DNA of 49,015 nt from a virus. Lineage: Duplodnaviria; Caudoviricetes. The notes under the pieces are model-generated. The model did no database searches. It was not told the origin of the DNA and saw only the letters and a list, made by a program, of their open reading frames with translations. Location of the stretch: positions 1 to 49,015 of IMG/VR virus record IMGVR_UViG_3300034132_000016; one strand, written 5' to 3'. Both the position numbers and the translations under genes were made by a program. Positions 18,190-39,226 of this stretch are shown piece after piece (within the stretch, counting starts at the first letter, position 1; each line of letters begins with the position of its first letter).

Positions 18190-18370
18190 AGGGGTTCCTA
18201 AATATCGTCAAATAGGAGGTTTCAAACCCTAATCAGGAGAGTCGAGCGAACGGAAGTTGGGATAACGAGTATTTATAGCTAGGAATATTTCTTTTTCCGA
18301 CGACTCCTACGGCTGTTTCAATGCGATGGGGTATGGGCAATAATGGTGATTGAAGTATTCATGACGCTGT

Positions 18371-20963: not shown

Positions 20964-21295
20964 TGACTGGATGTATTGCAAGAGTTCCACCGACAAAGGA
21001 AATGCAGATTGCAGCTAGACAAGGGTTGCAACTGCAACAAGAGTATGGGCGAGGGGAGTCAAAAATTCGGATGGAGAGAACTAAAGAAATTGTAAATGGT
21101 GAACCATTAGATGAACAAGACTGGCGAGGGATTGCTTCATTTCATGCCCGTTATTACGGTGACAGTCCTCCACAGCAGCAGCTAACCAGACCGGATGGAG
21201 GACCAGATGCTAGATACATTGCTGCTCTGTTGTCAGGAGGGAAAGCAGGACAGGAAACCGCTTTTAATTTAATACCAAAGCTTAATAGAAATTAA
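20963..21295 (+). CDS. conserved phage head-module helical domain protein
   Basis: P..AARQGL..GRG...SFHAR...YIAALLSGG pattern recalled from phage head-associated proteins; starts MTGCIAR. Confidence 0.5.
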   Translation: MTGCIARVPPTKEMQIAARQGLQLQQEYGRGESKIRMERTKEIVNGEPLDEQDWRGIASFHARYYGDSPPQQQLTRPDGGPDARYIAALLSGGKAGQETAFNLIPKLNRN

Positions 21296-21312
21296 GGTTA
21301 AAGCTAAAGCTG

Positions 21313-21585
21313 ATGGCAGGAAGAATTGCAGGATGTGGAGTAAAAGTTAAGGGTAAGATCACACTCGATCTTGACTCAAAGATTCCTATTGAAAATGTTG
21401 CCCACTTACTGAATCAGGTTGGATCAAATCAATCTGATTCAAGCCCAATTCCTCTTTCTTTATTGCAGCCACAGCAGGCGTCAAGCAGACGAGTTTTATC
21501 GCCTCATTACTACTCTTCTCCAGTGTTTCCAGTTTCAAGCAAGATCATGGACTACCCAGAAAATTATATTAATCCTCCGCAGTAA
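21313..21585 (+). CDS. GRIAG-motif small protein
   Basis: Starts MAGRIAG. Confidence 0.6.
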   Translation: MAGRIAGCGVKVKGKITLDLDSKIPIENVAHLLNQVGSNQSDSSPIPLSLLQPQQASSRRVLSPHYYSSPVFPVSSKIMDYPENYINPPQ

Positions 21586-21608
21586 TAGAAAGAGCAGAAG
21601 GAGTTGTT

Positions 21609-21905
21609 ATGGCTTTTTTAGGTGAGAAGTTTGGAGAAGTAGAAGCAGCTATTGGTTATTTTGGGGCTGATGTTCTGACTGGGACAGGTGTCCAAACTCC
21701 TCCTACTGGGTTTTATTGGTATTATATTCAAAACATTGGTTCAGTTGATGCGACTTTTACCAGTCTGACCGGAAATATTTCTGGAGGAACTAGTATTGTT
21801 TTGAGTTCTGGTAAAGGTTTTGGAGGAATTATTACTGCACTTCAACTGTCTGCTGGTTCAGTCATTGCTTATCGAATTCCTGTTCAGTACGCTTTTTATC
21901 GATAG
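21609..21905 (+). CDS. small beta-rich structural protein
   Basis: AGGAG RBS; LSAGSVIAY C-terminal motif. Confidence 0.6.
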   Translation: MAFLGEKFGEVEAAIGYFGADVLTGTGVQTPPTGFYWYYIQNIGSVDATFTSLTGNISGGTSIVLSSGKGFGGIITALQLSAGSVIAYRIPVQYAFYR

Positions 21906-21909
21906 AGAA

Positions 21910-22764
21910 ATGCCAAAACTTGGAATCGGCATTAGTGTTTTTGAAGGTGTCAGTAGTCAGTCTAGTGGACCTACCTATGATGCTGTTACGCTTGCCTGGA
22001 AAAGTGCAGTAGAAGCTGCTGGTGGTTCGGTTGTAAATTCAATCAATGCTGTCGATGCCTATGTTAAAGGGTGTAAAACTGATGGTATTTGGGCAAAGCT
22101 AAGTAGTGGACTGATTATTCCGGCTGCTACGGATACCTTTGTTGGATGTTTTATTCCTCTTGTAGCCCCTTCTGGAGTTATTCCTGTTAATAATAATTTT
22201 GTGGCTAGTGATTATAGCCTTTCTACTGGATTTAATCCGGGTGTTTCTAACACGACAAAATCCATCAGTACAGGTTTTATCCCAAGCAGCCATTTAGCTT
22301 CTGATAACTCTGCTCAACAAAGTTTTTATAGTCGAACTAATTCAAAAAGTTCTGGTTATCCAGGTACCATGAATGTTAGTGCAGGTACAGGCAAATGGTT
22401 ATTTTGTCTTAATTCAACAGACAATAGCAGCTATTTTGATTGTTGGGATAGTGGTGGTTCAGGACGCATTATTTCATCAATTCCCAACACATTAGGTTTA
22501 ATTTCTTCTTCAAGAATTGCTGCAAACGATTTAAGGGTTTATCGTAATGGTTCGCAGGTTGGCAGTACGGGGACTGGAACTATTGTTAGTACAAGAGCCA
22601 CTGGGCAAGTTCTCGTTTTTGCTCCCGGAGCATCTGACGCAAATGTTTATGAAAATAGGATTTGCTCCTACATTTATATAGGATCGGGCTTAACCTCCTC
22701 AGAAGAAGCTTTTCATTATTCTCGCGTTCAAACTATGCAAACTACGTTAGGGCGTAATGTTTAA
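21910..22764 (+). CDS. lectin/LamG-like virion protein
   Basis: Start MPKLGIG; YRNG motif; Ser/Gly/Thr-rich. Confidence 0.6.
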   Translation: MPKLGIGISVFEGVSSQSSGPTYDAVTLAWKSAVEAAGGSVVNSINAVDAYVKGCKTDGIWAKLSSGLIIPAATDTFVGCFIPLVAPSGVIPVNNNFVASDYSLSTGFNPGVSNTTKSISTGFIPSSHLASDNSAQQSFYSRTNSKSSGYPGTMNVSAGTGKWLFCLNSTDNSSYFDCWDSGGSGRIISSIPNTLGLISSSRIAANDLRVYRNGSQVGSTGTGTIVSTRATGQVLVFAPGASDANVYENRICSYIYIGSGLTSSEEAFHYSRVQTMQTTLGRNV

Positions 22765-23162
22765 TGGGACGTATTGCCGGATTACTTAAAAGCCCTCTAA
22801 TTCAGCCACTCGTGTTTAGTGCGCTGACTTATGGCATCGGTCGATTGTCTGGACAGGATAACCAGAGAGCTTTGTTAAACACAGTCGGAGGAGTTGGAGG
22901 GGCATACGCAGGAGAAGTATTAGCTCACCGTTATGGACCTCATATCAGCGTTAATCCAACAATTAAGGGCAGGCGGATTCCAATAAACCTGGGTAGTATC
23001 TCTGGTTCGATTGCTGGAGGTTATATCGGCACAGGTATCTCAGAAGGTATTGATCGAGTTGCAAGAGGAAATGAAGGTGATGGAGGCGAAGCTAATCCTT
23101 TCTTGCTTGCAGCAGATGAACTAGCTATGCCAGTTTTTCACATTGCTAGAGCCTTATCTTGA
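22764..23162 (+). CDS. GRIAG-motif glycine-zipper protein
   Basis: Starts MGRIAG; GxxxG repeats. Confidence 0.65.
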   Translation: MGRIAGLLKSPLIQPLVFSALTYGIGRLSGQDNQRALLNTVGGVGGAYAGEVLAHRYGPHISVNPTIKGRRIPINLGSISGSIAGGYIGTGISEGIDRVARGNEGDGGEANPFLLAADELAMPVFHIARALS

Positions 23163-23705
23163 TTTTTTGCTTTCATAACGAATCCGGTGTAGCCAGATGT
23201 TGCTAGGGTTAGCGATCGATTCTGGGCTACACAGGCGAGAAATCAGGCTTGCTGAGTAATGCAACCCTTCACCGGAAACGCTGGTATCGTAGCCCCAATC
23301 GTTCCACTCTCCATAGGGATCATTCACAATGAAGCTGCGATCGTGATTGTCGTAGCCCTTGACTACAACGATGTGCCCAAATCGAGTAAAGTAGCCATGC
23401 AGTACGCAAGGAATGCCTTTATCGATTGCATCTCGAATGTCCCTTAATGTTCCGTTTGTGGTTAGGTCATCCTTGCAATTTGGATAACTCTCTACCAACT
23501 GTTTTAGCCCACATGGGTCATGACGACTCCACCCTTTGGCGGTGCAACGAGTGTATAGCTGATCTTCTAATTGAGGATAGCTAGTATCCCCCCGGACGCC
23601 CAGAAAGTATAGAGACATTGCGATCGAGGTCACGTTGCAGCTTCCAGACGGGTTAAATTGATTATCCCTCTGACTGAAGTAAGGGAAGTTTTTTAGAACT
23701 GGCAT
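23154..23705 (-). CDS. C39-like cysteine peptidase (candidate endolysin)
   Basis: YFSQRDN, GSCNVTSIAM (Cys), GHIVVV (His), NDPYG (Asp). Confidence 0.88.
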   Translation of the reverse strand: MPVLKNFPYFSQRDNQFNPSGSCNVTSIAMSLYFLGVRGDTSYPQLEDQLYTRCTAKGWSRHDPCGLKQLVESYPNCKDDLTTNGTLRDIRDAIDKGIPCVLHGYFTRFGHIVVVKGYDNHDRSFIVNDPYGEWNDWGYDTSVSGEGLHYSASLISRLCSPESIANPSNIWLHRIRYESKKSR

Positions 23706-23722
23706 TTACCTTATTCCTATAT

Positions 23723-24598
23723 TTATTTCATCAGACTTTTGAGTTCTGTTAGTAACTGAGATTTGTTGAGTAGCTTCTGATTACAGAAGAATTCCAACAC
23801 AGGATCTTTATCTAACACCAGACTTCTAAACTCTGCGACCAGAAGAGAAAGGCGAGTTTCAAATTCAATCATTCTTTGGATTGCAACTTTGGGATTCCCA
23901 GAGTTTGTGTCATGGGGAAGGTAATTGATTTCGGTTGGGTTAGGAGTTCCTTTCAGGTAAGTCCGTCCTTCGTCAATTCTTAGAATGAATTGAAGATTTT
24001 GCTGATAGGATTCAAGACAGTCTTGAACCAATAGACCAAATCGACAGGCAACAGTTGTTGATTCAATGCCTCCGATCGTTGCGCTATAAAAAGCGTAAAG
24101 AGAAACCCCGGCAATTTCTTGAGCAGCAAGTTTTTGTAAATAGCCAAGAACTTGTGCCCAAAAGCTGCTTTCCTGTGGTTGACTACCGTTGCCTGATTGG
24201 TACTGATTTTCAGCGTTAGGGGCAAAATTAGCCTGCTGTGAAGGATAGGTAGATTCAGGGACAGAGTAAAGATACTGTCCTTGTCCTGGTTGTTTCTGAT
24301 TTTGGAGTCCCTGGTTCTGAAGTCCCTGGTTCTGAAGTCCTGGCATCCTTTGAACCTGCTGACTCTGAAAAGGCTGTGGCAGAGGGGAGTTGTTGTGATT
24401 GTTAAATTGAGTTTGTTGAGCGAGTAGTTGCTGAAGCTGACTTACCTGAGCTTGCAGATACTCTGTTGAATCACCTGGGAAAGTAGAGTTATTGGAATTG
24501 TTGAGGTCTGGGGGTAGTGTTCTAGGATCCAGTCCTTCAGGGTAATTATATTCGGAGGCAAAGTCAGTCATAAGGGCGATAATAAATGAGTGATTCAT
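23723..24598 (-). CDS. Gln/Asn-rich protein with ferritin-like C-terminal domain (putative)
   Basis: GLQNQ repeats; LQKLAAQE..Y...KDPV four-helix pattern. Confidence 0.45.
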   Translation of the reverse strand: MNHSFIIALMTDFASEYNYPEGLDPRTLPPDLNNSNNSTFPGDSTEYLQAQVSQLQQLLAQQTQFNNHNNSPLPQPFQSQQVQRMPGLQNQGLQNQGLQNQKQPGQGQYLYSVPESTYPSQQANFAPNAENQYQSGNGSQPQESSFWAQVLGYLQKLAAQEIAGVSLYAFYSATIGGIESTTVACRFGLLVQDCLESYQQNLQFILRIDEGRTYLKGTPNPTEINYLPHDTNSGNPKVAIQRMIEFETRLSLLVAEFRSLVLDKDPVLEFFCNQKLLNKSQLLTELKSLMK

Positions 24599-24648
24599 TC
24601 ATAGTTTATCTTTCCTTGCGCTAAACCTGGATAACTTGGAATTAAAAT

Positions 24649-25665
24649 ATGGTTGGCAGAACGATCAAACCGCTACAGGTACAGGTTCAAAGAGGCTTTC
24701 AAAGAGCCTTGCCTAATGATCGCAGTCAGTCATTAAGGTTCTGGCAAAATTCTGTCAATATTGAAAATGCTAATGGTATTTCTGATATACAGGGTTTAGA
24801 CTTGCCTCAAAAGATTGCCTATGGAGTTGGCAGAATAGCAGGCGATCTGGCAGGGGATTTAAGTCGAGGACTTTATTGGCGATACAACCATCCTCTAGCG
24901 ATTACCCATCAGTTAGGAGAACAAATTCCTAAAGCTGCAAGGTTTATGGACTATTCAGGGAAAGTGCCAAGATGGGCTACTGCTGCAACCGGGTTTGGGT
25001 TAGTAACTGCTTTGGATGTAGCAAGTGGGAATGTAGACTTGACCAACCTGGGAGACTTTGGTAGACCTAAAGGCTATTCTGCGATATTCGCAAGTCCTGA
25101 AGATCCAACAAAGTCTGAAGCCCCCCTACTGGAACCGATTGTAGGTTATGTTGTTGGGCGTAAAGGAAAGCTGCTTCCCTATCCGGAGTTCAATCAGGAA
25201 AGACCCGATGTTTCACCTGAAGACTATCAGCAATATAAGCAGTATCAGGGCTTTAATGTTCCCGGTCTTCTCGACTTAGAAAAAGCAAACCTACTGGCAA
25301 CAGCCGCAATTGGTGGAACTGTTGGAGCATTGACAAGAAAGCCTGGAACCAGCCTGATTAATACAGGTCGAAGGGCTGCAATTGGAGCTTTGATGGGTAG
25401 CGCTGTTCCTAAAACGGCTGAGATTGTCTCTCGAATGGGATTACTCAAAGGCACCTGGCATAATCTTGATAATGAACCGGAAGTTCAGTTGATGGGTTAT
25501 AAGGTGCCCTTGAGTGGAGCTGCAATTACAGCCGGAGTTGCAGCAGGGATGTACGGATACATGAAATCAAAATCCTATGATCCTGATCTGGATCCGTTTG
25601 CTCAGTCTCAACGAGTTAAAGAAAAGGTCATGGAGAGGTTCAAACAGCGAGGTCAAATTCCGTAA
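24649..25665 (+). CDS. GRIAG-motif protein with glycine zippers (candidate internal virion protein)
   Basis: GRIAG at residue 61; several Gly/Ala hydrophobic helices. Confidence 0.65.
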   Translation: MVGRTIKPLQVQVQRGFQRALPNDRSQSLRFWQNSVNIENANGISDIQGLDLPQKIAYGVGRIAGDLAGDLSRGLYWRYNHPLAITHQLGEQIPKAARFMDYSGKVPRWATAATGFGLVTALDVASGNVDLTNLGDFGRPKGYSAIFASPEDPTKSEAPLLEPIVGYVVGRKGKLLPYPEFNQERPDVSPEDYQQYKQYQGFNVPGLLDLEKANLLATAAIGGTVGALTRKPGTSLINTGRRAAIGALMGSAVPKTAEIVSRMGLLKGTWHNLDNEPEVQLMGYKVPLSGAAITAGVAAGMYGYMKSKSYDPDLDPFAQSQRVKEKVMERFKQRGQIP

Positions 25666-26482
25666 GAGACTCGATTGGTTCCAGTTCAAAACCCAATTCT
25701 CCCATCTGTTCTTCAGGGCTATCATTAGCTTTGATTGAGTTTGTAAATCCGTTCCCAACCGTAAAGGTGTATTTTCCATCTGTAACAATATCCAGAAACC
25801 AGAGCATGTCAGGAGATAGCCCATCCAGCTTTGTTGGATAGGTCAAAAAGAACTCTCGTAAATGTGCTCTATGGAAATAAATATAGCCAGCTAACCCCTT
25901 CCTTTTTTTAGGCTTGAGGATTTTCCTGTACTGAGGAGTGTTGATGACGGTGCGAAACCACATATAGCCGCAATTTAATCCTTTGCAAATTTCAGAGATT
26001 GTGAAATAGGTGCTACTGCACAACTTGATACTGATTTGCAGTTGGGTTAGTCGTTTTTTCAAACCTCCTTCATTAAGCGGAAAGAGGTTGAAGTCTTTTC
26101 TGATTTTATTAAATCGCCTGAGTAGAACTGGAAGTGGATATTCTCCTGCATTCTCTCTTAACCATTCATTCTCAACTTCAAGCTGTCTACCTCTGGCGTA
26201 GTGAATTTTGAGATCAAGATTTAATGCTTGAATTTTTTTCTTGACTGATTGATTGGATCGAGTGGGAAAGAATGGCATTAGTGCTCTCGCTAGATGAGCC
26301 TGACAAATGGAAGGATTTTTTTGAACAATCTCAAGTGCTTTAATTCTGAACTGTTCCAACTCTTCTTTAGTCCATTTGACCTTATCTTGTTTTTCTGTAG
26401 TTTTATTGGTTTCAGTCATAATCTTTTCCTTTATGAATAGTTTTGTTCTTAGACTGTTTTTAATGAGTCTATCAATCATCAA
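25640..26482 (-). CDS. basic putative DNA-binding protein
   Basis: Lys/Arg-rich with HTH-like segments (FTISEICKGLNCG). Confidence 0.55.
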   Translation of the reverse strand: MMIDRLIKNSLRTKLFIKEKIMTETNKTTEKQDKVKWTKEELEQFRIKALEIVQKNPSICQAHLARALMPFFPTRSNQSVKKKIQALNLDLKIHYARGRQLEVENEWLRENAGEYPLPVLLRRFNKIRKDFNLFPLNEGGLKKRLTQLQISIKLCSSTYFTISEICKGLNCGYMWFRTVINTPQYRKILKPKKRKGLAGYIYFHRAHLREFFLTYPTKLDGLSPDMLWFLDIVTDGKYTFTVGNGFTNSIKANDSPEEQMGELGFELEPIESLTEFDLAV

Positions 26483-26582
26483 AATAACAAAAAAGAAGCC
26501 TCAATCGAGACTCAATGCTACGATTAATAGGAATCGCTTGAAACAGCGATGAATAATGACTCACAGGGATGAGTAGAGCCTT

Positions 26583-27047
26583 ATGATGCAGACTGGAGCA
26601 GGAACAGGCAGGATTGCAGGAGTGCTGGCAGGAGGTAAAAATCTAGCCGGAGGACTCTATCAGTTTGCAAAGAATAATCCTTTGCTGGCTGGAGGAGCTT
26701 TGGCAGGGGTAGCCGGAACAGGCTATCTAGCGTACAACCGATTAATCAATCCCACATTCTCTGGTCCTTCTCAGGCAGAAATGGTAGCTCAGACTCAGGT
26801 GCCATTTCAGGAAGCGAAGGGACAGGGGCAGATACCGACTCAATCAATTTCTAAATATAATTACGCTCCAAATCCGCAAAGTGTTGAGGCTAACTTTTCT
26901 AATCTGCCTCAATCTATTCCGAATGGCTATTTAGATCCTGTTGTGGTTGGGAAAGAGCGTTTGCGCCTTCAGAAGGAAAACGAGACTTTAACAAACGACT
27001 ATAAACTCAACTCCATTTATCAGCAGTCCCTCGGATACAGAAATTAA
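26583..27047 (+). CDS. GRIAG-motif protein
   Basis: TGRIAG at the N-terminus; Gly/Ala hydrophobic helix. Confidence 0.65.
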   Translation: MMQTGAGTGRIAGVLAGGKNLAGGLYQFAKNNPLLAGGALAGVAGTGYLAYNRLINPTFSGPSQAEMVAQTQVPFQEAKGQGQIPTQSISKYNYAPNPQSVEANFSNLPQSIPNGYLDPVVVGKERLRLQKENETLTNDYKLNSIYQQSLGYRN

Positions 27048-27058
27048 AATTACTAGAG

Positions 27059-27448
27059 TTGTTAATCATGATGCAAACAAATTACAGACGATCTACTGCT
27101 GATTATCGACCAATTCCTGAAATGGACGATATGGCTCCAGGAATGCGAGTTCCGCCGATGGATTTAGGGATTGGTGGTATTGCTCCCGGAAGCGATCCAC
27201 GCAGAATGAAAGCGGCACAAATGTTAGATGGCATTTTGAGATCTCAATTTATGCAGTCTCCGAATGTACAGCAGGGACTTGGAGCAGCAGCAGCCGGAGC
27301 AGCCGGATACGGGCTGACTCAGGCATTCAATCAGGTATCTCCATTTGATGTTGATCCTGCTATTGGTGGGATTGTCGGAGCAGCAGTAGGAGGAGGAGTT
27401 GCGACCAACCTTCTGCGTCGGGCAATGGCAAGAAAAGGCATGGGTTGA
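27059..27448 (+). CDS. glycine-zipper protein
   Basis: GLGAAAAGAAGYG and GGIVGAAVGGG segments. Confidence 0.6.
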   Translation: MLIMMQTNYRRSTADYRPIPEMDDMAPGMRVPPMDLGIGGIAPGSDPRRMKAAQMLDGILRSQFMQSPNVQQGLGAAAAGAAGYGLTQAFNQVSPFDVDPAIGGIVGAAVGGGVATNLLRRAMARKGMG

Positions 27449-27458
27449 GTGAGTTCAA

Positions 27459-27749
27459 ATGGATAGCTTTAATTGGGTCGATGAAAAAAAAGCCAAACAG
27501 AATAAAGCCCTTGATGCACTTCAGGGGGCTTTATCGATTGGGGGTTTTGTTCCGGTTCTTGGGGCTATTCCTGACCTGGCTAATGCCGGAATTTCTGCGA
27601 TGCGGGGTCGATGGGCTGATGCCGGAATTAGTGCTCTGAGTGCTCTTCCGTTTGCCGGAGATGCTTTTGGAACGATTAATCTTGCCTCAAAAGCTGGACG
27701 AATTGCAGGAGTTGGAGAGGAAGTAAGTAAAGCAGGGAGGCTTCTGTAA
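27459..27749 (+). CDS. GRIAG-motif protein with pre-toxin-like helical hairpin
   Basis: LD..GFVPVLGAIPDLANAGIS..RG.WADAGISALSALPFAG. Confidence 0.6.
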   Translation: MDSFNWVDEKKAKQNKALDALQGALSIGGFVPVLGAIPDLANAGISAMRGRWADAGISALSALPFAGDAFGTINLASKAGRIAGVGEEVSKAGRLL

Positions 27750-28009
27750 TGGCTATTGGCGCAGGTATGGGTGGACGGATTGCCGGATTAGGGAAAGGTG
27801 TAATGAGACTAGGGGGAGCAGCCTTAAACTCCCCGTTATTGTGGATGGCTCCAATGTTTCTTCCGATGGGAGGGGGAGGTAGTCCTGAATCTTCTTCTAT
27901 GTCAGGTAAGCCAGTTCCACCTCCGTACTTAGACGAGTTTACTAAGCGCTATATGCTTGAGACTCAGGCGATGAATGATGCTCAGATGCTAGGGCAACAA
28001 TTTAAGTAA
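27749..28009 (+). CDS. GRIAG-motif small protein
   Basis: MAIGAGMGGRIAG. Confidence 0.6.
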   Translation: MAIGAGMGGRIAGLGKGVMRLGGAALNSPLLWMAPMFLPMGGGGSPESSSMSGKPVPPPYLDEFTKRYMLETQAMNDAQMLGQQFK

Positions 28010-28042
28010 AAGCAAAGCTTTTAGATAAAGTGCTAAACAAAT

Positions 28043-28846
28043 ATGGCATACGAAGTTAAACAAGGTCCGAATTGGGGTCCATTAGATTATATAAATCCTC
28101 TCAAGTATGAGTGGTCGCCTCTTCGTCAGCTTGAGAAGAATCAGCCTGGGTATGCTGGTAATCGTCTTCAAAGAGCTTTGGATGTTGGTGATTATGACGC
28201 AGCAGGTCAGGCTTATCAGCAGTTTGAACCTAAAACACAACAGGAATTAGAACAGGCTAATCAAGCAAGAAGAATCTTAAGTGGTCGAGAACAACAGCTT
28301 AAAACTGAAGCTGAAGGGAAGGTTCTTGGTCAATTCAAGGAGTATGGGGATTATGACCTTGGCAGACAACAGAAGCTACTTGAAAGACAGATTGCAGGAC
28401 AAACAGCCGTAACTCGGATTGGCGCAGATGCCAGTATCAAACAGGCAGAGTTAGGCGCAGGAGCATCTATCTTCGGCTCACAGGTTGGGGCTGAAGCTTC
28501 TAAATACGCTTCGTTAATGGGAGCAGATGCCTCTAAGTACGGTTCTCGGATGGGGGCTGAAGCTTCAATGTACGGTTCTCGGATGGGGGCTGAAGCTTCT
28601 AAATACGCCTCCCAAATGGGGTATCAGGGAGCAGTTGATACTGCACGAATCGGACTTCAGGGGATTCAGAATACAAATTTGACCCAGAAGCAAATAGCTG
28701 ACATGACTTCAAACAGGCAACTCAGGCTTGGGTTAAGTCAGGATGCAAGTCAACGTATTGCTGGAGGACTGCAATATGGTTCTCAGAACAGGAGAGGACT
28801 TGAGGCTCTAGCAGCAAATGTTCTTCAACGCAGTTCATTTAGATAA
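28043..28846 (+). CDS. helical protein with 11-aa repeats (candidate ejection protein)
   Basis: About five GA(E/D)AS(K/M)Y(G/A)Sxx repeats; QRIAG variant. Confidence 0.65.
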   Translation: MAYEVKQGPNWGPLDYINPLKYEWSPLRQLEKNQPGYAGNRLQRALDVGDYDAAGQAYQQFEPKTQQELEQANQARRILSGREQQLKTEAEGKVLGQFKEYGDYDLGRQQKLLERQIAGQTAVTRIGADASIKQAELGAGASIFGSQVGAEASKYASLMGADASKYGSRMGAEASMYGSRMGAEASKYASQMGYQGAVDTARIGLQGIQNTNLTQKQIADMTSNRQLRLGLSQDASQRIAGGLQYGSQNRRGLEALAANVLQRSSFR

Positions 28847-28860
28847 GTAGGTAGTAAAAC

Positions 28861-29181
28861 ATGAGTGAAATTCAATCTCATCAATTTTCTGATTCAGAAG
28901 GTAATCCCGCAGGTGGTATGTCACAAGCCCTTGGGGTGATTGTTAGTTGGCAAAATGGACCTCTTGTTTATGGAAGAGATGGAACCAAACATTCTAATGG
29001 TGCCTTTGTTGAGGATTTAATCAAAATTGCAATTGATCGATTGAAATTTTATGAAAACAGTAAATTTAGCTGCAAAGAAAACAAGGAAGCAATTCACCAT
29101 TTAAACGAAGCGTTAGATTGGCTTAATTCAAGAACCAAAGATCGAGAAAGGCGAGGTGTAGAAGGTACATATCAAATTTAG
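28861..29181 (+). CDS. tad1: Tad1-family anti-defence sponge protein
   Basis: WQNGP..NG..EDLI.I.IDRL..F...FSC.EN..A..L.EAL.WL..R..DR..RGVEGT matches the recalled Tad1 pattern. Confidence 0.8.
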   Translation: MSEIQSHQFSDSEGNPAGGMSQALGVIVSWQNGPLVYGRDGTKHSNGAFVEDLIKIAIDRLKFYENSKFSCKENKEAIHHLNEALDWLNSRTKDRERRGVEGTYQI

Positions 29182-29228
29182 TAACACAATAAAAAACTAA
29201 AAATAATTCAACAGAATCAGAATTAATT

Positions 29229-29876
29229 ATGGCGATCGCAAAACCTACAGGAAGAATTGCCGGAACCGGGAAACTCTCTTCCGGTTCACAGGAAGGATTT
29301 AACCTGGCAGCAGCCCTGGATGGGATGAATGATCGTTATCAAGGATCTCTATCGGGATGGGTGAATCAGCTTGCCAATGATCAGTTCATCAGGGATGAGA
29401 AAGCATTTAAGCTTCAGGCTCAAACTCAGAATTGGCAGAATCAGTCTCAGGCAAGTCATCAGTACGGTCTTCAAGAAGCGGGTAAAGAAGGTGATTTTCG
29501 GAGAGGGTTTCTAGCTCAATCGAATCCTGCTCATGAAGGGAAGCAACAGGATGATAAGTTAAGAGCTAGTTTCAACCTGGGAGAAATGAGCAAGCAGAAT
29601 GATTTTTCCAGGCAAAGAGATTTGATGGATCATGCAGCTTCACTGTCAGCTAATAGTAGTGGAGGTGGTGGCAGTGGTGGAGCCGGAGGAAGAGGAGGTA
29701 TAGGAGATGACACAAATGCCTTGATGAGTGACCTGGCTCGAATGTCCGCTCAAAGAGCCATACAAGGGGATGCACTGGCAACCCAAAGGTATTTAGGAGA
29801 GCTAGACGAAGGAAACAAACGGTTTAGCACAATGGCAGCGCTGTCACAGTCAAATAATTTTCAGTATTGGCGATAA
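29229..29876 (+). CDS. GRIAG-motif Gln/Gly-rich protein
   Basis: MAIAKPTGRIAG; poly-Gly linker. Confidence 0.65.
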   Translation: MAIAKPTGRIAGTGKLSSGSQEGFNLAAALDGMNDRYQGSLSGWVNQLANDQFIRDEKAFKLQAQTQNWQNQSQASHQYGLQEAGKEGDFRRGFLAQSNPAHEGKQQDDKLRASFNLGEMSKQNDFSRQRDLMDHAASLSANSSGGGGSGGAGGRGGIGDDTNALMSDLARMSAQRAIQGDALATQRYLGELDEGNKRFSTMAALSQSNNFQYWR

Positions 29877-29914
29877 TCAATAATTTTAGTTTTATAGATA
29901 AAGGAGTTATTTAG

Positions 29915-30280
29915 ATGGCAGGGTTTCAAACAGATTGGATTAGTGGTCCTAGTGTCGCGCAGCAAAACTCATTAACGAATTCCTTCTGGAATTCGAAAAT
30001 TAGATCTTTTGATTCTATTGCTAACAACAATAGTAGTAGCAACAATTCTAATCAATCCTCGACTCCTTCTTGGGACCAACAACGAAATGCAGCTAGAGAA
30101 GATGCAAGTTGGACTACAGAGCAAAACTGGAATGATTTTGTGCGTAAAGGTGCCCAGAGTCAAAGCTGGAGAGATCATGAATTTAGCCTGCGTCAGCAGG
30201 CAACAGAAGCAGCCGCTAATCGTGCCAGGAACGCTCAAAAGGCAGATGCTAGTAAAGCCTGGGCTTCAGCCCTACGTTAA
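29915..30280 (+). CDS. Asn/Ser/Gln-rich helical protein
   Basis: AGGAG RBS; located in the structural cluster. Confidence 0.6.
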   Translation: MAGFQTDWISGPSVAQQNSLTNSFWNSKIRSFDSIANNNSSSNNSNQSSTPSWDQQRNAAREDASWTTEQNWNDFVRKGAQSQSWRDHEFSLRQQATEAAANRARNAQKADASKAWASALR

Positions 30281-30290
30281 AGGATAAGGT

Positions 30291-30479
30291 ATGGATTCCT
30301 CGAATGCTCCAACCTATGATTTGGACATGCCTCAGTTTTCTTCAAGAGGTAAACCAACTATTTATGATTTAGACACTCAAACAAGTACTCGCAGAAAAGC
30401 AGCATTAATGGCTCAGATGAGATCCCAAAATCAAATCATGAATGGTGACGCATCTAAGACAGACATCTCCAGGTATTAA
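30291..30479 (+). CDS. small protein with PTxYDLD repeat
   Basis: 62-aa ORF in the operon. Confidence 0.5.
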   Translation: MDSSNAPTYDLDMPQFSSRGKPTIYDLDTQTSTRRKAALMAQMRSQNQIMNGDASKTDISRY

Positions 30480-30494
30480 TTAACTGAAACACTA

Positions 30495-31088
30495 ATGGCA
30501 ACTGGTAGACCAAAGAACTCCTCTATTATTAAAACTTGGCTGGACACCCTATCTGATGAAGATAAGCTTGCTTTTAGAGATTATTGCAAAGCTCACTATC
30601 ATCAGAAGGGGATGATCCATGCTTATTTGATTGCAAGAGGATGTGAGGTTTCACTTGCCACTGTCTATAACTGGATTGGAGCAAACATTCCCAAGGGCGA
30701 AGAGGCAGTGCTTCTCGATCAAGAGGCAGAGGCTTATCGGGGAGTTGATATAACCCTGCAAATGGAGAAGCTATTTGCCAGTCTTGCCCGGATGGTTCAA
30801 CGATGTGAAGAGAGACTCCAGGGGGTTGAGCTTAGTCCTGAGAAATGTGCAGAACTCCTGCCTCAGTTTGCGCGAGAGATGAGAGCCGTTGGAGATAAGA
30901 TCACCAACACGAAAGCTGCTGTTGATACAGAGCTTCTGATCATGTCTGGGGCAATGCGAATGTTTGAGTTGATTGTTGCTACAGGTGGAATCAAAGATAC
31001 TGCTGATGAAACTTTTGTTCGTAAAGCCTGTGAGTCAGCAATTCTGAGGATTCGAGAAGAAGTAAAGTCTAAGACTCTTTCTAGTTAA
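30495..31088 (+). CDS. putative terminase small subunit
   Basis: Immediately upstream of TerL; HTH-like SLATVYNW plus helical C-terminus. Confidence 0.6.
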   Translation: MATGRPKNSSIIKTWLDTLSDEDKLAFRDYCKAHYHQKGMIHAYLIARGCEVSLATVYNWIGANIPKGEEAVLLDQEAEAYRGVDITLQMEKLFASLARMVQRCEERLQGVELSPEKCAELLPQFAREMRAVGDKITNTKAAVDTELLIMSGAMRMFELIVATGGIKDTADETFVRKACESAILRIREEVKSKTLSS

Positions 31089-31094
31089 AAATGG

Positions 31095-32672
31095 ATGGGT
31101 TTACACCTCTACAGTTTTCCAGCTTTAGAAGTTCAGCTTGAGAAACGGCAGCGATCGGAAAGAGAGGTTAGTCCTGAAGCGGCAGAATGTCGGACTGACT
31201 TCATTAAATTCCGGCAATACGTCTGCAATCACAAGTCATTTGAACATCATATTAACTGGGCAAAGCAGCTTGAAACAGGTGAAGACTCAAAGTGTCTTAA
31301 GCGAATCGGTGGCAAACACACGCTGATACTAGCTCCCAGAGGGTCAAGCAAATCGACGTTTTTGGTTGAATGGACAGCTTTTCAAATTGGAGTCCACACT
31401 TCTCCGGCTTATAAAATCCCTTTCAAGGTTTTATACATTAGCTATTCGATTGAGATAGCAATGCTCAAGTCAGAGCAAATTCAAGAAATTGTTTGTTCTG
31501 AAAAGTTTCAGGAAGTATTTCCCTGGGTTCGTCCTGGAAAGAAATGGGGCAGCAAGACCTGGGACATTGATAAAGCTCATGCAGATCTTCCCAGGATAGG
31601 GGAGCCTTACACTTTAGCTTGCGCTGGCATGAAGGGGGCTGTAGCCAGTCGTAGAGCACATCTTTGTGTTTTTGATGATTTACTGAAGAGTCCTGAACAA
31701 ATCGAAAACCCCTCTATCCGGGAACGGATGGAGTCTAACTGGTCAAATGTAATTCGTCCTGTCTTCTATGAAGGGGGTAGAGCTGTCTGTTTGGGAACCC
31801 GAATGAGGGTTGAGGATATTTATGAAACCACCTTCACCATTGAGCGGGACTGGAATGTAATCGAAGAGTCTGCGATCGTCGAAAACCCAGAAACAGGAGA
31901 AGAAGAATCTTACTGTGAAGAGTTGGCTACGCTTTCCTATCTTCAGTTTCTTCGAGAGGATGACCCAAACGCTTTTGCTTTGCAGTTTCAAAACAAAAAG
32001 CCAGAAGAAGGATCTGGAATTATTCATCCTGACTGGTGGATTGAAGGATGTCCTCCAGAGCTTGAAGACTTTGATTTCCTTGCTGTTTCAAGCGACTTTT
32101 CAGCATCGCAAAAAGAGCAGGCAGATTATACAGTTTTCTTGTTGTGGGGAAAGTTAGGGAATGAATATTGGGTGCTTGATATGCGTCGGGGTAGATGGTC
32201 AGGCAACATCGATAAATGCAATGTCCTTCTAGTGATGCTGATTGAATGGGGCATCCTAACGACTGAGACAGAGTATGAAACAAACTATCGATCTGGGAAA
32301 GTGACCTGGCTGACTGAGAATCCTGGAGACTGTCCAGTTATTTATCCAACAAATTTTTATGTGAACTTTTTTGCAGAAGCAGAGTCCTATCAGGTCAGCT
32401 TTGCAGCCGATTGGATCAACTATGTCCAAAATCAGATTAATCTCTGGTCAATTACCTGTCTTCCAATTCGACTCAAGGGAGATAAAATACAACGCCTGCG
32501 AGGAATCACAGGCGTTATGCAACGTAAACAGGTTAAAGCAAACAAATATCGAAAACTGAAACGGTTAAAGCAAGAATTATTAAGTGTACTCGCTAAAGAT
32601 GACGCAAGAGACGCTTATGTAATGGGACTTGCAGGGTTTGGAATTAGACCAAATTTATCAGCAGAAGTCTAA
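31095..32672 (+). CDS. terL: terminase large subunit
   Basis: APRGSSKS Walker A, VFDD Walker B, LGTR coupling motif, SSDFS / ADYT / DDxxD nuclease acidic residues. Confidence 0.92.
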   Translation: MGLHLYSFPALEVQLEKRQRSEREVSPEAAECRTDFIKFRQYVCNHKSFEHHINWAKQLETGEDSKCLKRIGGKHTLILAPRGSSKSTFLVEWTAFQIGVHTSPAYKIPFKVLYISYSIEIAMLKSEQIQEIVCSEKFQEVFPWVRPGKKWGSKTWDIDKAHADLPRIGEPYTLACAGMKGAVASRRAHLCVFDDLLKSPEQIENPSIRERMESNWSNVIRPVFYEGGRAVCLGTRMRVEDIYETTFTIERDWNVIEESAIVENPETGEEESYCEELATLSYLQFLREDDPNAFALQFQNKKPEEGSGIIHPDWWIEGCPPELEDFDFLAVSSDFSASQKEQADYTVFLLWGKLGNEYWVLDMRRGRWSGNIDKCNVLLVMLIEWGILTTETEYETNYRSGKVTWLTENPGDCPVIYPTNFYVNFFAEAESYQVSFAADWINYVQNQINLWSITCLPIRLKGDKIQRLRGITGVMQRKQVKANKYRKLKRLKQELLSVLAKDDARDAYVMGLAGFGIRPNLSAEV

Positions 32673-32719
32673 TAATGAATGAATCACTCATTTATAAATG
32701 TTAAAATAATAATGTAAAC

Positions 32720-32773
32720 GCCCCGCACTGCTGGAAACAGTCGAGGCACGGTCAACTAGAGTGAGTAGCTGAC
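32720..32773 (+). promoter_or_regulatory. two RNA hairpins in the HNH leader, the second abutting the GTG start
   Basis: Stems at 32720-32747 and 32751-32773; TAAAAT -10 at 32702. Confidence 0.5.
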
Positions 32774-33541
32774 GTGAATAATTATAGCTCGGAAGAAGAG
32801 ACTCTTCTCAATAATGGATTTGATTTATCAAAATTTAGATTTGGAACGCTCTGTTTAAGAAATCATGAATTTCTCAATACACAAAAAAGTATTAGAAGGA
32901 TGTCCAATGGCTTATGTCCTCAATGTCAAAACCTAAAAACAAGAGAATCAGAAAAGAAAATCCCAATTGAATCTAGAAAAGAACGTTCAAAAAATAACTA
33001 TTACAAGCATAAAGAGTCTCGACTGGAGAAAGCTAAAGCATGGAAAGCCCGAAATAAAGAGCGCTGTGCAGCCTGGAGAAAACAACGCAGACTTAAGCAT
33101 TTAGAAGAAGAAAAAGCTAACTACCGGGCGTATATGAAAACAGAAAGAGGTAGAGAATTAATGCTCTACCATAAACGCCTTAGACGAGCTAGGAAGCTTG
33201 CAGCAGGGGCACCAGATTACACCTTAGAAGAATTAAAGGAAAGATTTGAGCTATTTAATGGCAACTGCGTTTACTGCAATAATTCAGGAAACGCAGTTGA
33301 CCATTTCATTCCTTTGACAAAAGGAGGCAAAGAAAAGCTTTTAAACTTATATCTTTGCTGCAAAAGCTGTAATTCTTCCAAGGGAGACAGAGATGCAGAA
33401 GTCTGGTATAAATCTCAATCTTTTTTTAATCCTGAAAGATGGGAAGCTATTTTGCTCTTAAATTCAGACGATTGCCGGGACTCTTACGTCATGGGACTTG
33501 CAGGATTCGGAGTTAGACCTAATCTTTCAGTCGAAGTATGA
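32774..33541 (+). CDS. HNH endonuclease fused to a duplicated TerL C-terminus
   Basis: CVYC..DHFIPL..GG..N..CKSCNSSK; last 24 aa duplicate the TerL end. Confidence 0.9.
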   Translation: MNNYSSEEETLLNNGFDLSKFRFGTLCLRNHEFLNTQKSIRRMSNGLCPQCQNLKTRESEKKIPIESRKERSKNNYYKHKESRLEKAKAWKARNKERCAAWRKQRRLKHLEEEKANYRAYMKTERGRELMLYHKRLRRARKLAAGAPDYTLEELKERFELFNGNCVYCNNSGNAVDHFIPLTKGGKEKLLNLYLCCKSCNSSKGDRDAEVWYKSQSFFNPERWEAILLLNSDDCRDSYVMGLAGFGVRPNLSVEV

Positions 33542-33565
33542 TGAGCGAATCGCTCACCACTGTCC

Positions 33566-33961
33566 CTAGAGTGACTGGTTGAATACCCAAGTCAAAGAGG
33601 AATTGATAGCACAGGCATCTTTGTAGCCGCTATTGGTAATGATGTTGAAAGTCTTGACCAGTCTTGTTTCAAGCTTATTTAGAACTCCCAGCCTGACCCA
33701 GTAAGCATTATCAACTGCTTCAACCCAGACGATTGTTTTCCCGTAAGGAAAGTAAGCGTTAGCTTCTCCATATCGCTGAATGCGTTCAATAATGTGAAGC
33801 ACTCCAATTGCCTCAAGGCTTACAAGTAGTTCTTTTTCAACTTGCCCAATTGTTTTTCTAGAAGTGGGATGACGATCGCCAATAGACACAGGACTGATCT
33901 CTTCGATTTTTATATGAGTTGGCATTCCAATCATGCGTGGTAGATCCTGAGATAAACTCAT
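33566..33961 (-). CDS. hypothetical protein
   Basis: 131-aa ORF. Confidence 0.55.
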   Translation of the reverse strand: MSLSQDLPRMIGMPTHIKIEEISPVSIGDRHPTSRKTIGQVEKELLVSLEAIGVLHIIERIQRYGEANAYFPYGKTIVWVEAVDNAYWVRLGVLNKLETRLVKTFNIITNSGYKDACAINSSLTWVFNQSL

Positions 33962-34139
33962 TATTTCAAATCCCCAAATTAAAAGTTACAAAACTTTTTT
34001 CTTGGAGAAATACCTTTTTATTCATTCGCTATTTCAAAACTATGTCCCTACAGAAAACCCCCTTACGGGGGCAGAAAAAGAGGTTTTATGACCAGACTTA
34101 GCATCGTGGTTATCTCAGATTAACTTATTGAACAGCCAC

Positions 34140-34382
34140 TTATTCAAGTTTGTCCAGATTGGAAATAGGACTTGCTTTAGGAGCAATACCTTTAGCATAG
34201 ATTCCCAAAACAGCAATTCCCAGTCCTGAAACGATGCGGAGAATATCTGAGGTTTTTTGCCCAAACACTCCGCTTGTGGCAACGGTCGAAGATAAATCTG
34301 AAACCAGTTGAATGACTCCCAGGAGGCTAAGACTGCCTCCACCGACAAGACCTGCGAGAGTAGTGATGTGATCCGACTTCAT
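34140..34382 (-). CDS. holin-like small membrane protein
   Basis: Two TM helices; GGAG RBS; terminator-like hairpin at ~34054-34087 downstream. Confidence 0.45.
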   Translation of the reverse strand: MKSDHITTLAGLVGGGSLSLLGVIQLVSDLSSTVATSGVFGQKTSDILRIVSGLGIAVLGIYAKGIAPKASPISNLDKLE

Positions 34383-34581
34383 CTATTTCTCCCTTTGTGA
34401 CAGCGATTGACCAGACATGCAGTTTCTATAATTCTACCAATTCTGTATATAATAGTTCCAGTGTAGTGAGTCTATCAACCATCAGCAATTGAAGCGAGCA
34501 TTTTGCTGGTGTGAGCGTATCTGGCAGTACGCCTTTCTCTTCAGGACCACTACACTATTCTTTTTTCCGAAGATCTTTCAG

Positions 34582-35058
34582 ATGAGTCAAAATATTTATC
34601 CTGACAATATTGAAATTGTTATTGAAAAGAATGGCAAGCCTGTTGATTCTCTTCCACAAGAAGTTAAAGATTCAATAGAATTTCTTTATGAAAAGGGTCA
34701 TGATCCTGATAAAGAAATCAAGATGCACAATTCCTGTCTTCCCATTCAGGGAGAACTGATTCCGATCGTCTGCGACTACGACGATATTGATGGAAAAGGA
34801 ATTGAGCAGCAGCTTCGCAACATTATTAGTTCTCTTCAGAATGAACATCCGTCAAATCGAAAGTTTTTGATGGACTTTAAGGACATTCGCTATTTAGGCG
34901 TAGCGGAAAAAGTTCTTACAGAAATGCGTCCTGTACTTACGATGTCGGGTATTACTTTTGCGATCACTCCTCGAATGCAAGAAGCGATTAAAAGAGCAAG
35001 ACAGGTTCTTAAAAGAGGTTTTGCAGGTAGGACAAAAGTAGCAGTCGAGGAAGTGTAA
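34582..35058 (+). CDS. hypothetical protein
   Basis: Start MSQNIY placed after the TATTCTTTTTTCCGA leader motif. Confidence 0.6.
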   Translation: MSQNIYPDNIEIVIEKNGKPVDSLPQEVKDSIEFLYEKGHDPDKEIKMHNSCLPIQGELIPIVCDYDDIDGKGIEQQLRNIISSLQNEHPSNRKFLMDFKDIRYLGVAEKVLTEMRPVLTMSGITFAITPRMQEAIKRARQVLKRGFAGRTKVAVEEV

Positions 35059-35384
35059 TGCCTGGAAGAATTGCAGGAAAATATAACCCAACGGCTACTG
35101 CTGAAATTAATCGCAGAACTCAACAGTATGCAGCAAGAACAGGAGCTATGCCATCTCCACAGCAGATAAGCCAGCTTGAAGCAGCAGCAGTTAATAAAGG
35201 GAACTGGATTGAAGATGCTTTGGCTGTTTCTTTAACGGATAGGCGAGCAATGATTCGAGATTATGAAGTATCCCCGCAACAACTTCTTTCTCAAGGAGTT
35301 GCTTTGAATTCTTATCCCTTTGTTGAAATGGGGTATTTGCCGCCTTATCACCCCTATGAAAATTCGAGATATAGACTCGTTTAA
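35058..35384 (+). CDS. GRIAG-motif small protein
   Basis: Starts MPGRIAG. Confidence 0.65.
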   Translation: MPGRIAGKYNPTATAEINRRTQQYAARTGAMPSPQQISQLEAAAVNKGNWIEDALAVSLTDRRAMIRDYEVSPQQLLSQGVALNSYPFVEMGYLPPYHPYENSRYRLV

Positions 35385-35552: not shown

Positions 35553-36245
35553 ATGCTTAATTTATCAAATTATGTTTTTGGAAAAATTTGTAAAAATGGG
35601 CATGAATACGAAAATACGGGAATGTCTCTCAGGGCAAAAGTTTCCAGGAATTGTATAGAGTGTGTCAAGCTACGTGTTCAAACATTAGAAGCAAAAGAAA
35701 AAAGGAAAGAGTATCGGCGTAGACCGGAAGTAGCAGAAAAACATCGAAAAAGATCAAGAGATTATGCTGCTAGAAATAAAGGAAAGGTAAATGAAAAAAA
35801 TAGGCAATATCAAAAAGCGAATAAGGAACGTATTAATGAACAAAAAAAGAGATCTAGAAATGAAAATAGAGAAGAAGTAAATAAGAAGCGCAGGGAGTAT
35901 CACAAGACTTTTGGGTATAGGGCTTTTGATCTTAGAAGAAGGTCTAAAAAATTTATAGATAGAGGAGTTGTGATAGGCAACGTAAAGGGAATAGACTTAA
36001 AAAATCGGTTTAATCTCTTTGAAGGTTGTTGTGCTTACTGTGGGGATACGTTCGGAGAATGGGATCATTTCATTCCGCTATGTTTAGGCGGACCTCATTT
36101 AATGAGTAATATATTTCCTTCATGTATTTCTTGCAATTCTAAAAAAGCTTATTCGGATGGGAGAAAATGGTATCCACTTCAAAAGTTTTTTACCCAAGAA
36201 AGATGGAACAAAATATTAGGTTTAATTCATGACGGCAGGACTTGA
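35553..36245 (+). CDS. HNH endonuclease (paralog of 32774..33541)
   Basis: CAYC..DHFIPL..GG.H..N..CISCNSKK; AT-rich; own TGnTACAAT promoter at 35517-35525. Confidence 0.9.
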   Translation: MLNLSNYVFGKICKNGHEYENTGMSLRAKVSRNCIECVKLRVQTLEAKEKRKEYRRRPEVAEKHRKRSRDYAARNKGKVNEKNRQYQKANKERINEQKKRSRNENREEVNKKRREYHKTFGYRAFDLRRRSKKFIDRGVVIGNVKGIDLKNRFNLFEGCCAYCGDTFGEWDHFIPLCLGGPHLMSNIFPSCISCNSKKAYSDGRKWYPLQKFFTQERWNKILGLIHDGRT

Positions 36246-38532: not shown

Positions 38533-39226
38533 TCAGACCTACGGTCAGCCGCAACAACAAAATCCACTCCTTGCGCCTTCATTGCCTCAATATCAGGGGC
38601 AACAGTACCAGGGACAACAGTACCAGGGACAACAGTACCAGGGACAGCAAGGGCAACAGGCAAATGGAGGCTTTGCCACAAGTCAGGAGTTGACCCAGTA
38701 TTTTGGTTCTGCTGAAGTTGCAGCAGACAGTCTCAACAAATACGCTTGCATGGCGGAAGATCAGCTAGAACAAGCCAGTGTTCAATTACAACAGCTTGCA
38801 GCATATACACAGCAGCTTCAGCAAAAACATGAAGCGCTAGTTGACATCAATACGGATCCTGGCAAGTTGGCGCAATGGTATCTACAGCTAGAACAAATTT
38901 ATGGGGAGCTTCCGGGATTCACTCCCCAGGATATGCAACAAGCTCAGTATCAGACGGTGAATATGCAGGGCTACCCTACTCAAGGTGGACAGGTTTCTCA
39001 AATGAATCCAGGACTGGCGAGTGCCACCCTGGCAAATCAGATGTATAACCAGATGAATTCACAGGTTGCACCTCAGTCGCGTCCTCAGTTTCCCCAAATG
39101 CCAGTAGGAAATCCGGCTGGACAACAGGCACCTAATCTTACTGCTGTACCTGCAAATCAGCGTTACATGATGCTGGATCAGTTACAAGCAACCGGAGGCT
39201 TGAAAGGGGCAAGGCTTGTCTTCTAG
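37982..39226 (+). CDS. scaffolding protein (Gln/Pro/Tyr-rich)
   Basis: Between portal and capsid; coiled-coil core; QYQGQ repeats; GGAG RBS. Confidence 0.65.
   Translation: MDQNFTQTTMTPVAATLPISAATNSQVAGYQVSAPQVVPFPAPSAQYSQGFPQAYPMQGTAAMAPQMSMPVPQPSYNNGYPSNVIPFPAQHQGMQQGYTPMQAQSQAQPTQDGAWQTVREAMQLLASRNGQAPSLPPAVVPLMPQFQGYQQPYPQQPQVYQQGYQQGYPQTSPQALPYGGSTYSQTYGQPQQQNPLLAPSLPQYQGQQYQGQQYQGQQYQGQQGQQANGGFATSQELTQYFGSAEVAADSLNKYACMAEDQLEQASVQLQQLAAYTQQLQQKHEALVDINTDPGKLAQWYLQLEQIYGELPGFTPQDMQQAQYQTVNMQGYPTQGGQVSQMNPGLASATLANQMYNQMNSQVAPQSRPQFPQMPVGNPAGQQAPNLTAVPANQRYMMLDQLQATGGLKGARLVF

Follow-up and report, generated by a model that had tools for sequence, protein, structure and literature searches.

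To our knowledge, the selection of internal proteins in scaffold-type (P22/T7-like) phages is poorly characterised, and targeting peptides shared among proteins have been established in few phages, namely in T4 and, as a signal without consensus, in P1. The capsid-targeting sequence (CTS) of T4 is N-terminal and is removed by gp21, and the shell of encapsulins has the HK97 fold. [quoted passage not shown] For P22, it has been proposed that the scaffold docks the ejection proteins (PMC12005531).

The DNA analysed here, referred to as the window, is a stretch of 49,015 nucleotides and is a partial provirus of an S-EIV1-like cyanophage. Its capsid is 44% identical to the S-EIV1 capsid, the sole match among 50,697 phage records, and a homologous capsid, portal and gene order were all found, based on the capsid match and synteny. 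S-EIV1 is available in culture, and so is a Kovacikia strain that harbours a close prophage. The window is estimated to cover ~58% of the genome, so that a GRIAG count in it is not a whole-proteome count. A preliminary description had listed eight exact copies of the pentapeptide GRIAG together with the variants QRIAG (28751) and GCIAR (20969). Six-frame translation recovered both variants and exactly eight copies, all on the plus strand and each in the frame of a different long open reading frame (ORF, named below by its first position). The sites are as follows:

21319..21333, plus strand: GRIAG, residues 3-7 of the 90-aa ORF 21313-21585 (at residue 2 in the Kovacikia ortholog)
22767..22781, plus strand: GRIAG, residues 2-6 of the 132-aa Gly-rich ORF 22764-23162
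24829..24843, plus strand: GRIAG, residues 61-65 of the 338-aa lineage-wide protein 24649-25665, within predicted helix 52-69
26607..26621, plus strand: GRIAG, residues 9-13 of the 154-aa ORF 26583-27047
27696..27710, plus strand: GRIAG, residues 80-84 of 96, near the C-terminus of ORF 27459-27749
27773..27787, plus strand: GRIAG, residues 9-13 of the 86-aa ORF 27749-28009
29250..29264, plus strand: GRIAG, residues 8-12 of the 215-aa ORF 29229-29876
35064..35078, plus strand: GRIAG, residues 3-7 of the 108-aa ORF 35058-35384
20969..20983, plus strand: GCIAR, decayed tag at the start of the 110-aa ORF 20963-21295

As with the T4 CTS, one short motif is common to unrelated late proteins. However, GRIAG has no evident resemblance to the CTS in sequence, it comprises only 4-5 residues that stand at either end or internally and not strictly at the N-terminus, and no prohead protease was found for the GRIAG genomes. 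The Dar proteins of P1 have no consensus in the excerpt of PMC9024508, whereas here one motif is common to 8-11 proteins per genome. GRIAG shares with the encapsulin peptides its shortness and a nearby HK97-fold shell, but their consensus (LGI, GSL; PMC7925596, in part) differed by eye from the list of GRIAG sites, and encapsulins are cellular compartments with enzyme cargo, to which no homology was evident. In P22 and crAss001, podovirus-type internal proteins dock on the scaffold or portal and are then ejected (PMC12005531, PMC10172136), although the excerpts describe no shared short motif, and there are 3-5 cargo proteins, mostly large in crAss001. An Ala-Gly core is also common to several virion proteins in the vaccinia I7L system (PMC1947960, in part), but this is a eukaryotic virus, and the C48-family protease was not found in these phages.

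As had been stated, six of the sites fall in the N-terminal 13 residues (start positions 3, 2, 9, 9, 8 and 3), and Arg is encoded by AGA, CGT, AGG, CGA and CGG, thus the conservation is at the protein level. The chance expectation is indeed below one, at 0.021 GRIAG in a hand-picked set of 71 ORFs (14,069 aa), and none of 300 within-protein shuffles yielded a 5-mer common to more than four proteins, compared to the eight observed. The carriers are otherwise unrelated, forming separate BLASTP families at E<1e-4, and the reported confinement to late genes holds, with eight exact copies in the late region and none in the early region; one early gene contains SRIAG (10421), which is absent from the Kovacikia ortholog. 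Most carriers are small, as described, apart from two of 338 and 215 aa, but their designation as glycine-zipper proteins found a counterpart only in a sub-threshold Pfam match (E=0.0045) in one of the seven carriers scanned at that threshold. Rfam gave no match, and four sequencing runs contained no variant letters over 20800-30600. An assignment of 27459 to the PT-TG pre-toxin domain was rejected (0/4 records). No description of a GRIAG motif was found in the open literature searched.

Single-protein scans across viral contigs yielded no relatives, and the genome collection contained 2 distant loci only. The genomes used for comparison were the Kovacikia prophage (on a plasmid), the complete genome G002, and G001, L003, L004 and L086. 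The motif is retained in related phages, with 8 carriers in the Kovacikia prophage and 10 in G002. Over seven window/Kovacikia ortholog pairs with overall identities of 39-68%, the motif residues were identical at 35/35 positions and the flanking residues at 17/50. In six sequences, 37 of the 40 six-frame GR[ILV]AG matches are in called-gene frames, and the wobble positions vary. The third residue (I, V or L) sorts by genome, since 31 of 38 sites carry the genome majority, a value reached by 0 of 100,000 permutations; exceptions are one RIAG among six V-type sites in G001 and an L in the G002 ortholog of 24649. The tag can also switch ends, being C-terminal in 27459 and its Kovacikia ortholog and N-terminal in three other orthologs, at residue 11 in G002, residue 4 in L086 (GRLAG) and residue 3 in G001 (DRVAG). 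Altogether, the first 12 residues hold 27 of 48 sites, the remainder being internal or C-terminal, and the invariant core is hydrophobic-Ala-Gly, with the residues downstream free. Orthologs of 26583 carry GRIAG, GKVAG or GILAG. Some orthologs vary or have lost the tag: that of 22764 is kept in Kovacikia and G002, reads SRIAG in G001 and is lost in L003, and the tag of 20963 has decayed in the window, while all three non-identical homologs found have GRIAG at the start. L004 showed no site in 14.5 kb, a stretch spanning just the end of the cluster. These comparisons show that the motif is under selection, late-specific and portable, and that its spelling changes in concert within a genome.

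GRIAG is the sharp form of a lineage-wide R/K-hydrophobic-Ala-Gly tag. Across the lineage, hydrophobic-A-G-[KR]-[YF] occurs 79 times in Cys-free ORFs against 4.9 expected, with enrichment at both ends (22 versus 0.7, and 19 versus 0.2), and 0 times in Cys-containing ORFs against 2.8 expected, counts that are not independent because homologs were weakly dereplicated. The tag of 35058 runs on as IAGKY, thereby overlapping the LAGKY-type variant of S-EIV1. Using analyst-assigned labels, N-terminal tags were present in 0/85 portal, 0/19 capsid, 0/49 cement and 0/29 adaptor sequences. The carriers are Gly/Ala/Gln-rich, often with moderately hydrophobic segments, and contain 1 Cys in 1,219 residues, whereas the presumed shell and tail proteins have 21 in 3,209. 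The cluster genes 27068, 29915 and 30291 resemble cargo and are untagged.

By prediction, the 24829 site lies within a helix of a folded conserved domain, where it may have a structural role. Homologs of 24649 occur in 164 fetched loci (not dereplicated); fold searches gave it no known fold, with no PDB match at E<=0.001, a best VIA Z of 5.8 and one viral homolog, and all Atlas matches were under 0.9. Two further proteins of the cluster had matches elsewhere. One is the following:

28043..28846, plus strand: 267-aa repeat protein, DNA-pilot-like, resembling microvirus DNA pilot proteins

This protein matched 12 records, eight of them over annotated pilot genes, in the repeat region only (best E 4e-7). 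It is flanked by GRIAG carriers and is not an exact carrier itself, and its QRIAG is not kept in the Kovacikia ortholog. The other is 20963, whose domain forms the N-terminus of a protease-capsid fusion in Roseobacter phage CRP-406 (33% over 99 aa; seven Roseobacter records, one inspected). In ICP1, the capsid protease is fused to a second tagged domain, but the RIAG aligns to this domain's own VYRG segment, so that the fusion adds little support.

The head genes and the peptidase of the window are listed below:

31095..32672, plus strand: terminase large subunit, untagged
36229..38532, plus strand: putative portal protein by position and synteny (phrog_20475, virion structural protein), untagged, candidate reader
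37982..39226, plus strand: putative scaffolding protein by position and composition, untagged, candidate reader
39417..40604, plus strand: major capsid protein with HK97 fold, matching podovirus capsids best, untagged, candidate reader
23154..23705, minus strand: Peptidase_C39_2 protein, outside the tag system

An HK97-fold shell is encoded near the tags, and it is a true phage capsid with terminase. The explanation that we favour, with a probability of roughly 0.55, is that GRIAG is a docking tag that brings internal or ejected cargo into the prohead in the manner of the T4 CTS, though without homology to it, which keeps the capsid-loading role proposed earlier as the leading hypothesis. One shared partner would read the tag, and this would explain the genome-wide I/V/L shifts. 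The reader would be a component present in many copies in the prohead, with the scaffolding protein or the inside of the capsid as the most likely choice, the tag would be bound and not cut, and the cargo would consist of DNA-pilot/ejection and early-acting proteins that are released into the host at infection. The 20963 domain in the CRP-406 capsid fusion and the pilot-like 28043 in the same cluster support a location in the head, and the near absence of Cys in the carriers points to cargo. ORF 34582 was considered as a reader because it was found in just the six sharp-motif genomes; a fold search gave no nameable fold. Co-folding of capsid, scaffold (226-414) and residues 1-30 of ORF 35058 gave no answer (score 0.00, mark 0.32) and counts neither for nor against.

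It is unlikely, in our estimate, that the motif is instead a protease site, at which an unrecognised phage or host enzyme cuts at or after Ala-Gly to trim short propeptides at maturation or post-ejection. A hydrophobic-Ala-Gly core with free downstream residues is often seen in protease P-side motifs, the crowding of sites into the first 12 residues would fit as well, and the maturation site of vaccinia core proteins is Ala-Gly-Ala (PMC1947960, in part). However, the C39_2, S78, C48 and ClpP patterns revealed no shared protease, the portal, scaffold and capsid, which are the usual substrates, are untagged, and C-terminal cuts would free just three residues (Kovacikia 27459 ortholog, G001 24649 ortholog). 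The C39-like peptidase had been put forward as the processing enzyme. C39 leaders have ~15 or more residues ahead of the Gly-Gly/Gly-Ala site, whereas GRIAG often begins at residue 2-3. PF13529 is absent from G002 despite its 10 carriers, and the one match on the Kovacikia plasmid is ~100 kb away from the prophage; with both G002 and the Kovacikia prophage devoid of C39, this idea fails. The PHROG matches of the peptidase include an endolysin family. Searches for a maturation protease common to motif-bearing genomes found none: S78 gave 0/5 records with a working control, C48 0/5 with PF02902 as the sole profile for an I7-like clan CE enzyme, and the gp21-type protease PF03420 0/5 with the positive control also silent. 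ClpP was rejected, as it occurred in 1/5 records, G002 only.

Rather doubtful, too, is a tag read at or after ejection, either by the portal/tail channel ordering the exit or by a host envelope or cytoplasmic factor. The nearly Cys-free, Gly/Ala/Gln-rich composition of the carriers and their often moderately hydrophobic segments agree with it, and cargo segments of crAss001 bind the portal and tail barrel (PMC10172136, in part), but the genome-specific spelling would better suit a phage-encoded than a conserved host reader, and 8-11 different proteins seem many for 12 portal sites. GxxxG-type packing or self-association among cargo proteins, without a dedicated reader, appears slightly less probable again. 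GRIAG is literally G-x-x-x-G and lies in a predicted helix of 24649, yet the first Gly can be replaced (E, D, A, S and T in G001 and G002), exact GRIAG is found in 0 of 2,004 ORFs of the wider lineage, and most of the sites stand at the very ends of proteins, some of which are hydrophilic. Chance, or a DNA or RNA element close to gene starts, can practically be dismissed, for although GGA makes up 13 of the 16 Gly codons at the window sites versus ~40% usage, the frame-dependence of the motif refutes such an element, the window holds no copy out of frame, between genes or on the minus strand, relatives show free variation at synonymous positions, and shuffles never came near the observed count.

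The docking tag reading can be extended, more tentatively, to a cleavage-independent address code of 4-5 residues in a large cyanophage lineage, with one co-evolving prohead reader and a dozen small interchangeable proteins, in which a tag at either end would make a protein injected cargo. If true, the injected proteome of a widespread group of uncultured cyanophages would become predictable purely from sequence through a minimal portable tag, dozens of hypothetical proteins would be flagged as early-acting cargo, and a very short tag would be available for delivering proteins into cyanobacteria.

The preliminary description listed eight exact copies of GRIAG, the variants QRIAG (28751) and GCIAR (20969), and an arginine encoded by five different codons, all of which was correct on rechecking. 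It had also put the chance expectation well below one, and with 0.021 occurrences expected in 14,069 residues against eight observed this estimate holds; in 300 shuffles, a 5-mer common to more than four proteins was never obtained. No GRIAG was found on the minus strand or out of frame in the window, and no alignment of one carrier to another was found, in line with their description as mutually unalignable. The GRIAG motif is a real feature, for which we infer a function below. At E<0.001, no family in Pfam or PHROG matches any of the eight carriers. They are rich in Gly, Ala and Gln, and together contain 1 Cys in 1,219 residues. In the cluster upstream of terminase in the more distant loci L005-L257, entire gene families, with dozens of homologs, contain 0.00-0.01 Cys per 100 residues, a near-absence that is possibly a marker of ejected proteins. 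The 338-aa carrier (ORF 24649) has a confident predicted fold (pLDDT 86), for which fold searches yielded no known fold, and its GRIAG lies within a helix; this site may be structural, although its spelling is the genome's tag spelling in 4/5 genomes.

The window is a provirus record with an estimated completeness of 58%, and four soil metagenome runs contain near-identical DNA. The capsid protein (39417) shares 89% identity with that of a prophage carried by Kovacikia minuta plasmid pA, its single match among 50,697 phage records is Synechococcus phage S-EIV1 (44%), and its predicted model (pLDDT 73) has an HK97 fold, with podovirus capsids as top matches. The late block runs from tail-fibre-like genes through the small-protein cluster to terminase, portal, scaffold and capsid, the portal and scaffold being assigned from position. 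These two ORFs (36229-39226) overlap by ~550 nt in different frames, likewise in the Kovacikia prophage, L003, L004 and S-EIV1. Other features in the window are:

17560-18304: gene-poor stretch with nested inverted repeats, between the early and late blocks
23723-24598, minus strand: Gln-rich protein, divergent from 24649, position conserved in the Kovacikia prophage and the complete genome G001
28861-29181, plus strand: anti-defence sponge protein of the Tad1/Acb2 type, matching Tad1 structures at E=1e-12
32774-33541, plus strand: HNH endonuclease whose C-terminus repeats the terminase's last residues

In the gene-poor stretch, the inverted arms at 17990-18039/18140-18189 are 50 nt long and match at 86%; a second inverted pair, of 19 nt and without mismatch, lies at 15455-15473/18286-18304. 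The stretch has no Rfam match and is possibly an origin, packaging or recombination site. The Gln-rich protein looks ferritin-like by eye, and a Pfam ferritin-like gene lies nearby in the complete genome G002. The sponge gene, which also matches more weakly a chain named gp184 (entry 8y6v), is untagged and inserted in the cargo cluster, its slot being filled by a different gene in Kovacikia. Since YVMGLAGFG is common to both C-termini, the HNH insertion seems to have duplicated the terminase 3' end.

When the motif was counted in related phages, as had been proposed, the Kovacikia prophage showed 8 GRIAG carriers and G002 10 with the exact motif; among the latter, two proteins of 63 aa and one domain of 82 aa lack a listed window homolog. 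In the 7 ortholog pairs common to the window and Kovacikia, motif residues were identical at 35/35 positions versus 17/50 for flanking residues. Late regions contain 8 (window), 8 (Kovacikia) and 11 (G002) GR[ILV]AG sites, with 0.05-0.11 expected, and the early regions of all three contain 0, which extends the earlier remark that the exact motif was not seen in early genes. The G002 late region also encodes a host-like ClpP (68758-69291) and an EAL-domain protein (77313-78383). The spelling is mostly x[RK]VAG in G001, where R[ILVM]AG occurs 6 times late (0.73 expected) and once early, and GRLAG in fragment L086. The third residue follows the genome: 31/38 sites have their own genome's majority residue, matched by 0/100,000 permutations, with Kovacikia and L003 excluded as near-duplicates of spelling. 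The motif position floats, being C-terminal in 27459 and N-terminal in three of its orthologs. GCIAR is evidently a decayed tag, because GRIAG begins all three non-identical homologs.

Exact GRIAG was absent from 2,004 ORFs of the more distant loci. In the first 20 residues of these ORFs, R-hydrophobic-A-G occurs 40 times versus 5.5 expected (shuffle maximum 8), R-hydrophobic-A-A is slightly up (9 versus 4.9) and the control R-hydrophobic-G-A is at 0; these ORF sets were dereplicated by N-terminus only, so the counts are not independent. A related form, hydrophobic-A-G-[KR]-[YF], is found only in Cys-free ORFs and is enriched at N- and C-termini; in ORF 35058 (GRIAGKY), both forms overlap. The lineage scan found no N-terminal tags in portal, capsid, cement, adaptor, HhH or small-terminase families, and 3/55 large-terminase ORFs gave a scan hit for one.

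A location inside the head is suggested by three clues. In Roseobacter phage CRP-406, the 20963 domain, which normally bears the tag, makes up the N-terminus of a polyprotein with protease and capsid parts, the protease segment having been identified by eye. Over its repeats, ORF 28043 is similar to DNA pilot proteins of microviruses. A tagged 82-aa domain of distant relatives corresponds to the C-terminal part of the ICP1 capsid protease gp125, a weak clue since RIAG aligns opposite the domain's own VYRG.

The GRIAG-type peptide is selected, portable and late-specific, and its spelling shifts genome-wide. We infer, with a probability of roughly 0.55, that it is a docking tag: one reader would recognise all tags, the tagged proteins would be loaded into the prohead, and this cargo would later be ejected. 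That GRIAG is instead a cleavage site, as the preliminary description also considered, is rather unlikely; docking is favoured because no protease common to the motif-bearing genomes was found (several protease profile searches, one without a positive control), shell proteins are untagged, and cutting C-terminal copies would remove just three residues. C39 enzymes act on leaders of about 15 or more residues ahead of the Gly-Gly/Gly-Ala site. The C39-like peptidase suggested as the processing enzyme cannot be required, because it is absent from both G002 and the Kovacikia prophage. Reading of the tag at ejection or in the host is somewhat less probable than cleavage, and a self-association motif is the least probable of these.

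The system nearest in its working to the docking tag would be the T4 capsid-targeting sequence, which is cleaved by gp21. The GRIAG tag is not a member of that system, as its place in the protein varies and the searches showed no cognate protease. Phage P1 DarB has its own packaging signal with no shared consensus (PMC9024508), and encapsulin targeting peptides are a conceptual parallel with a different consensus (PMC7925596); the comparison also took in PMC10172136, PMC8790148, bioRxiv 10.1101/325100 and PMC1947960. No description of the GRIAG motif was found in searches of the literature outside subscription journals. By analogy to T4 (PMC3012670) and P22 (PMC12005531), and because of copy number, the scaffold or capsid interior would be the preferred candidate reader. 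A 158-aa protein with an invariant S-C-x-P (34582-35058, plus strand) is present in the six sharp-motif genomes and not in L004 or S-EIV1, and is a candidate reader or modifier. The Kovacikia minuta prophage (NZ_CP083583.1, about 699-745 kb), mostly syntenic with the window and without annotation in the collection used, is a possible experimental system.
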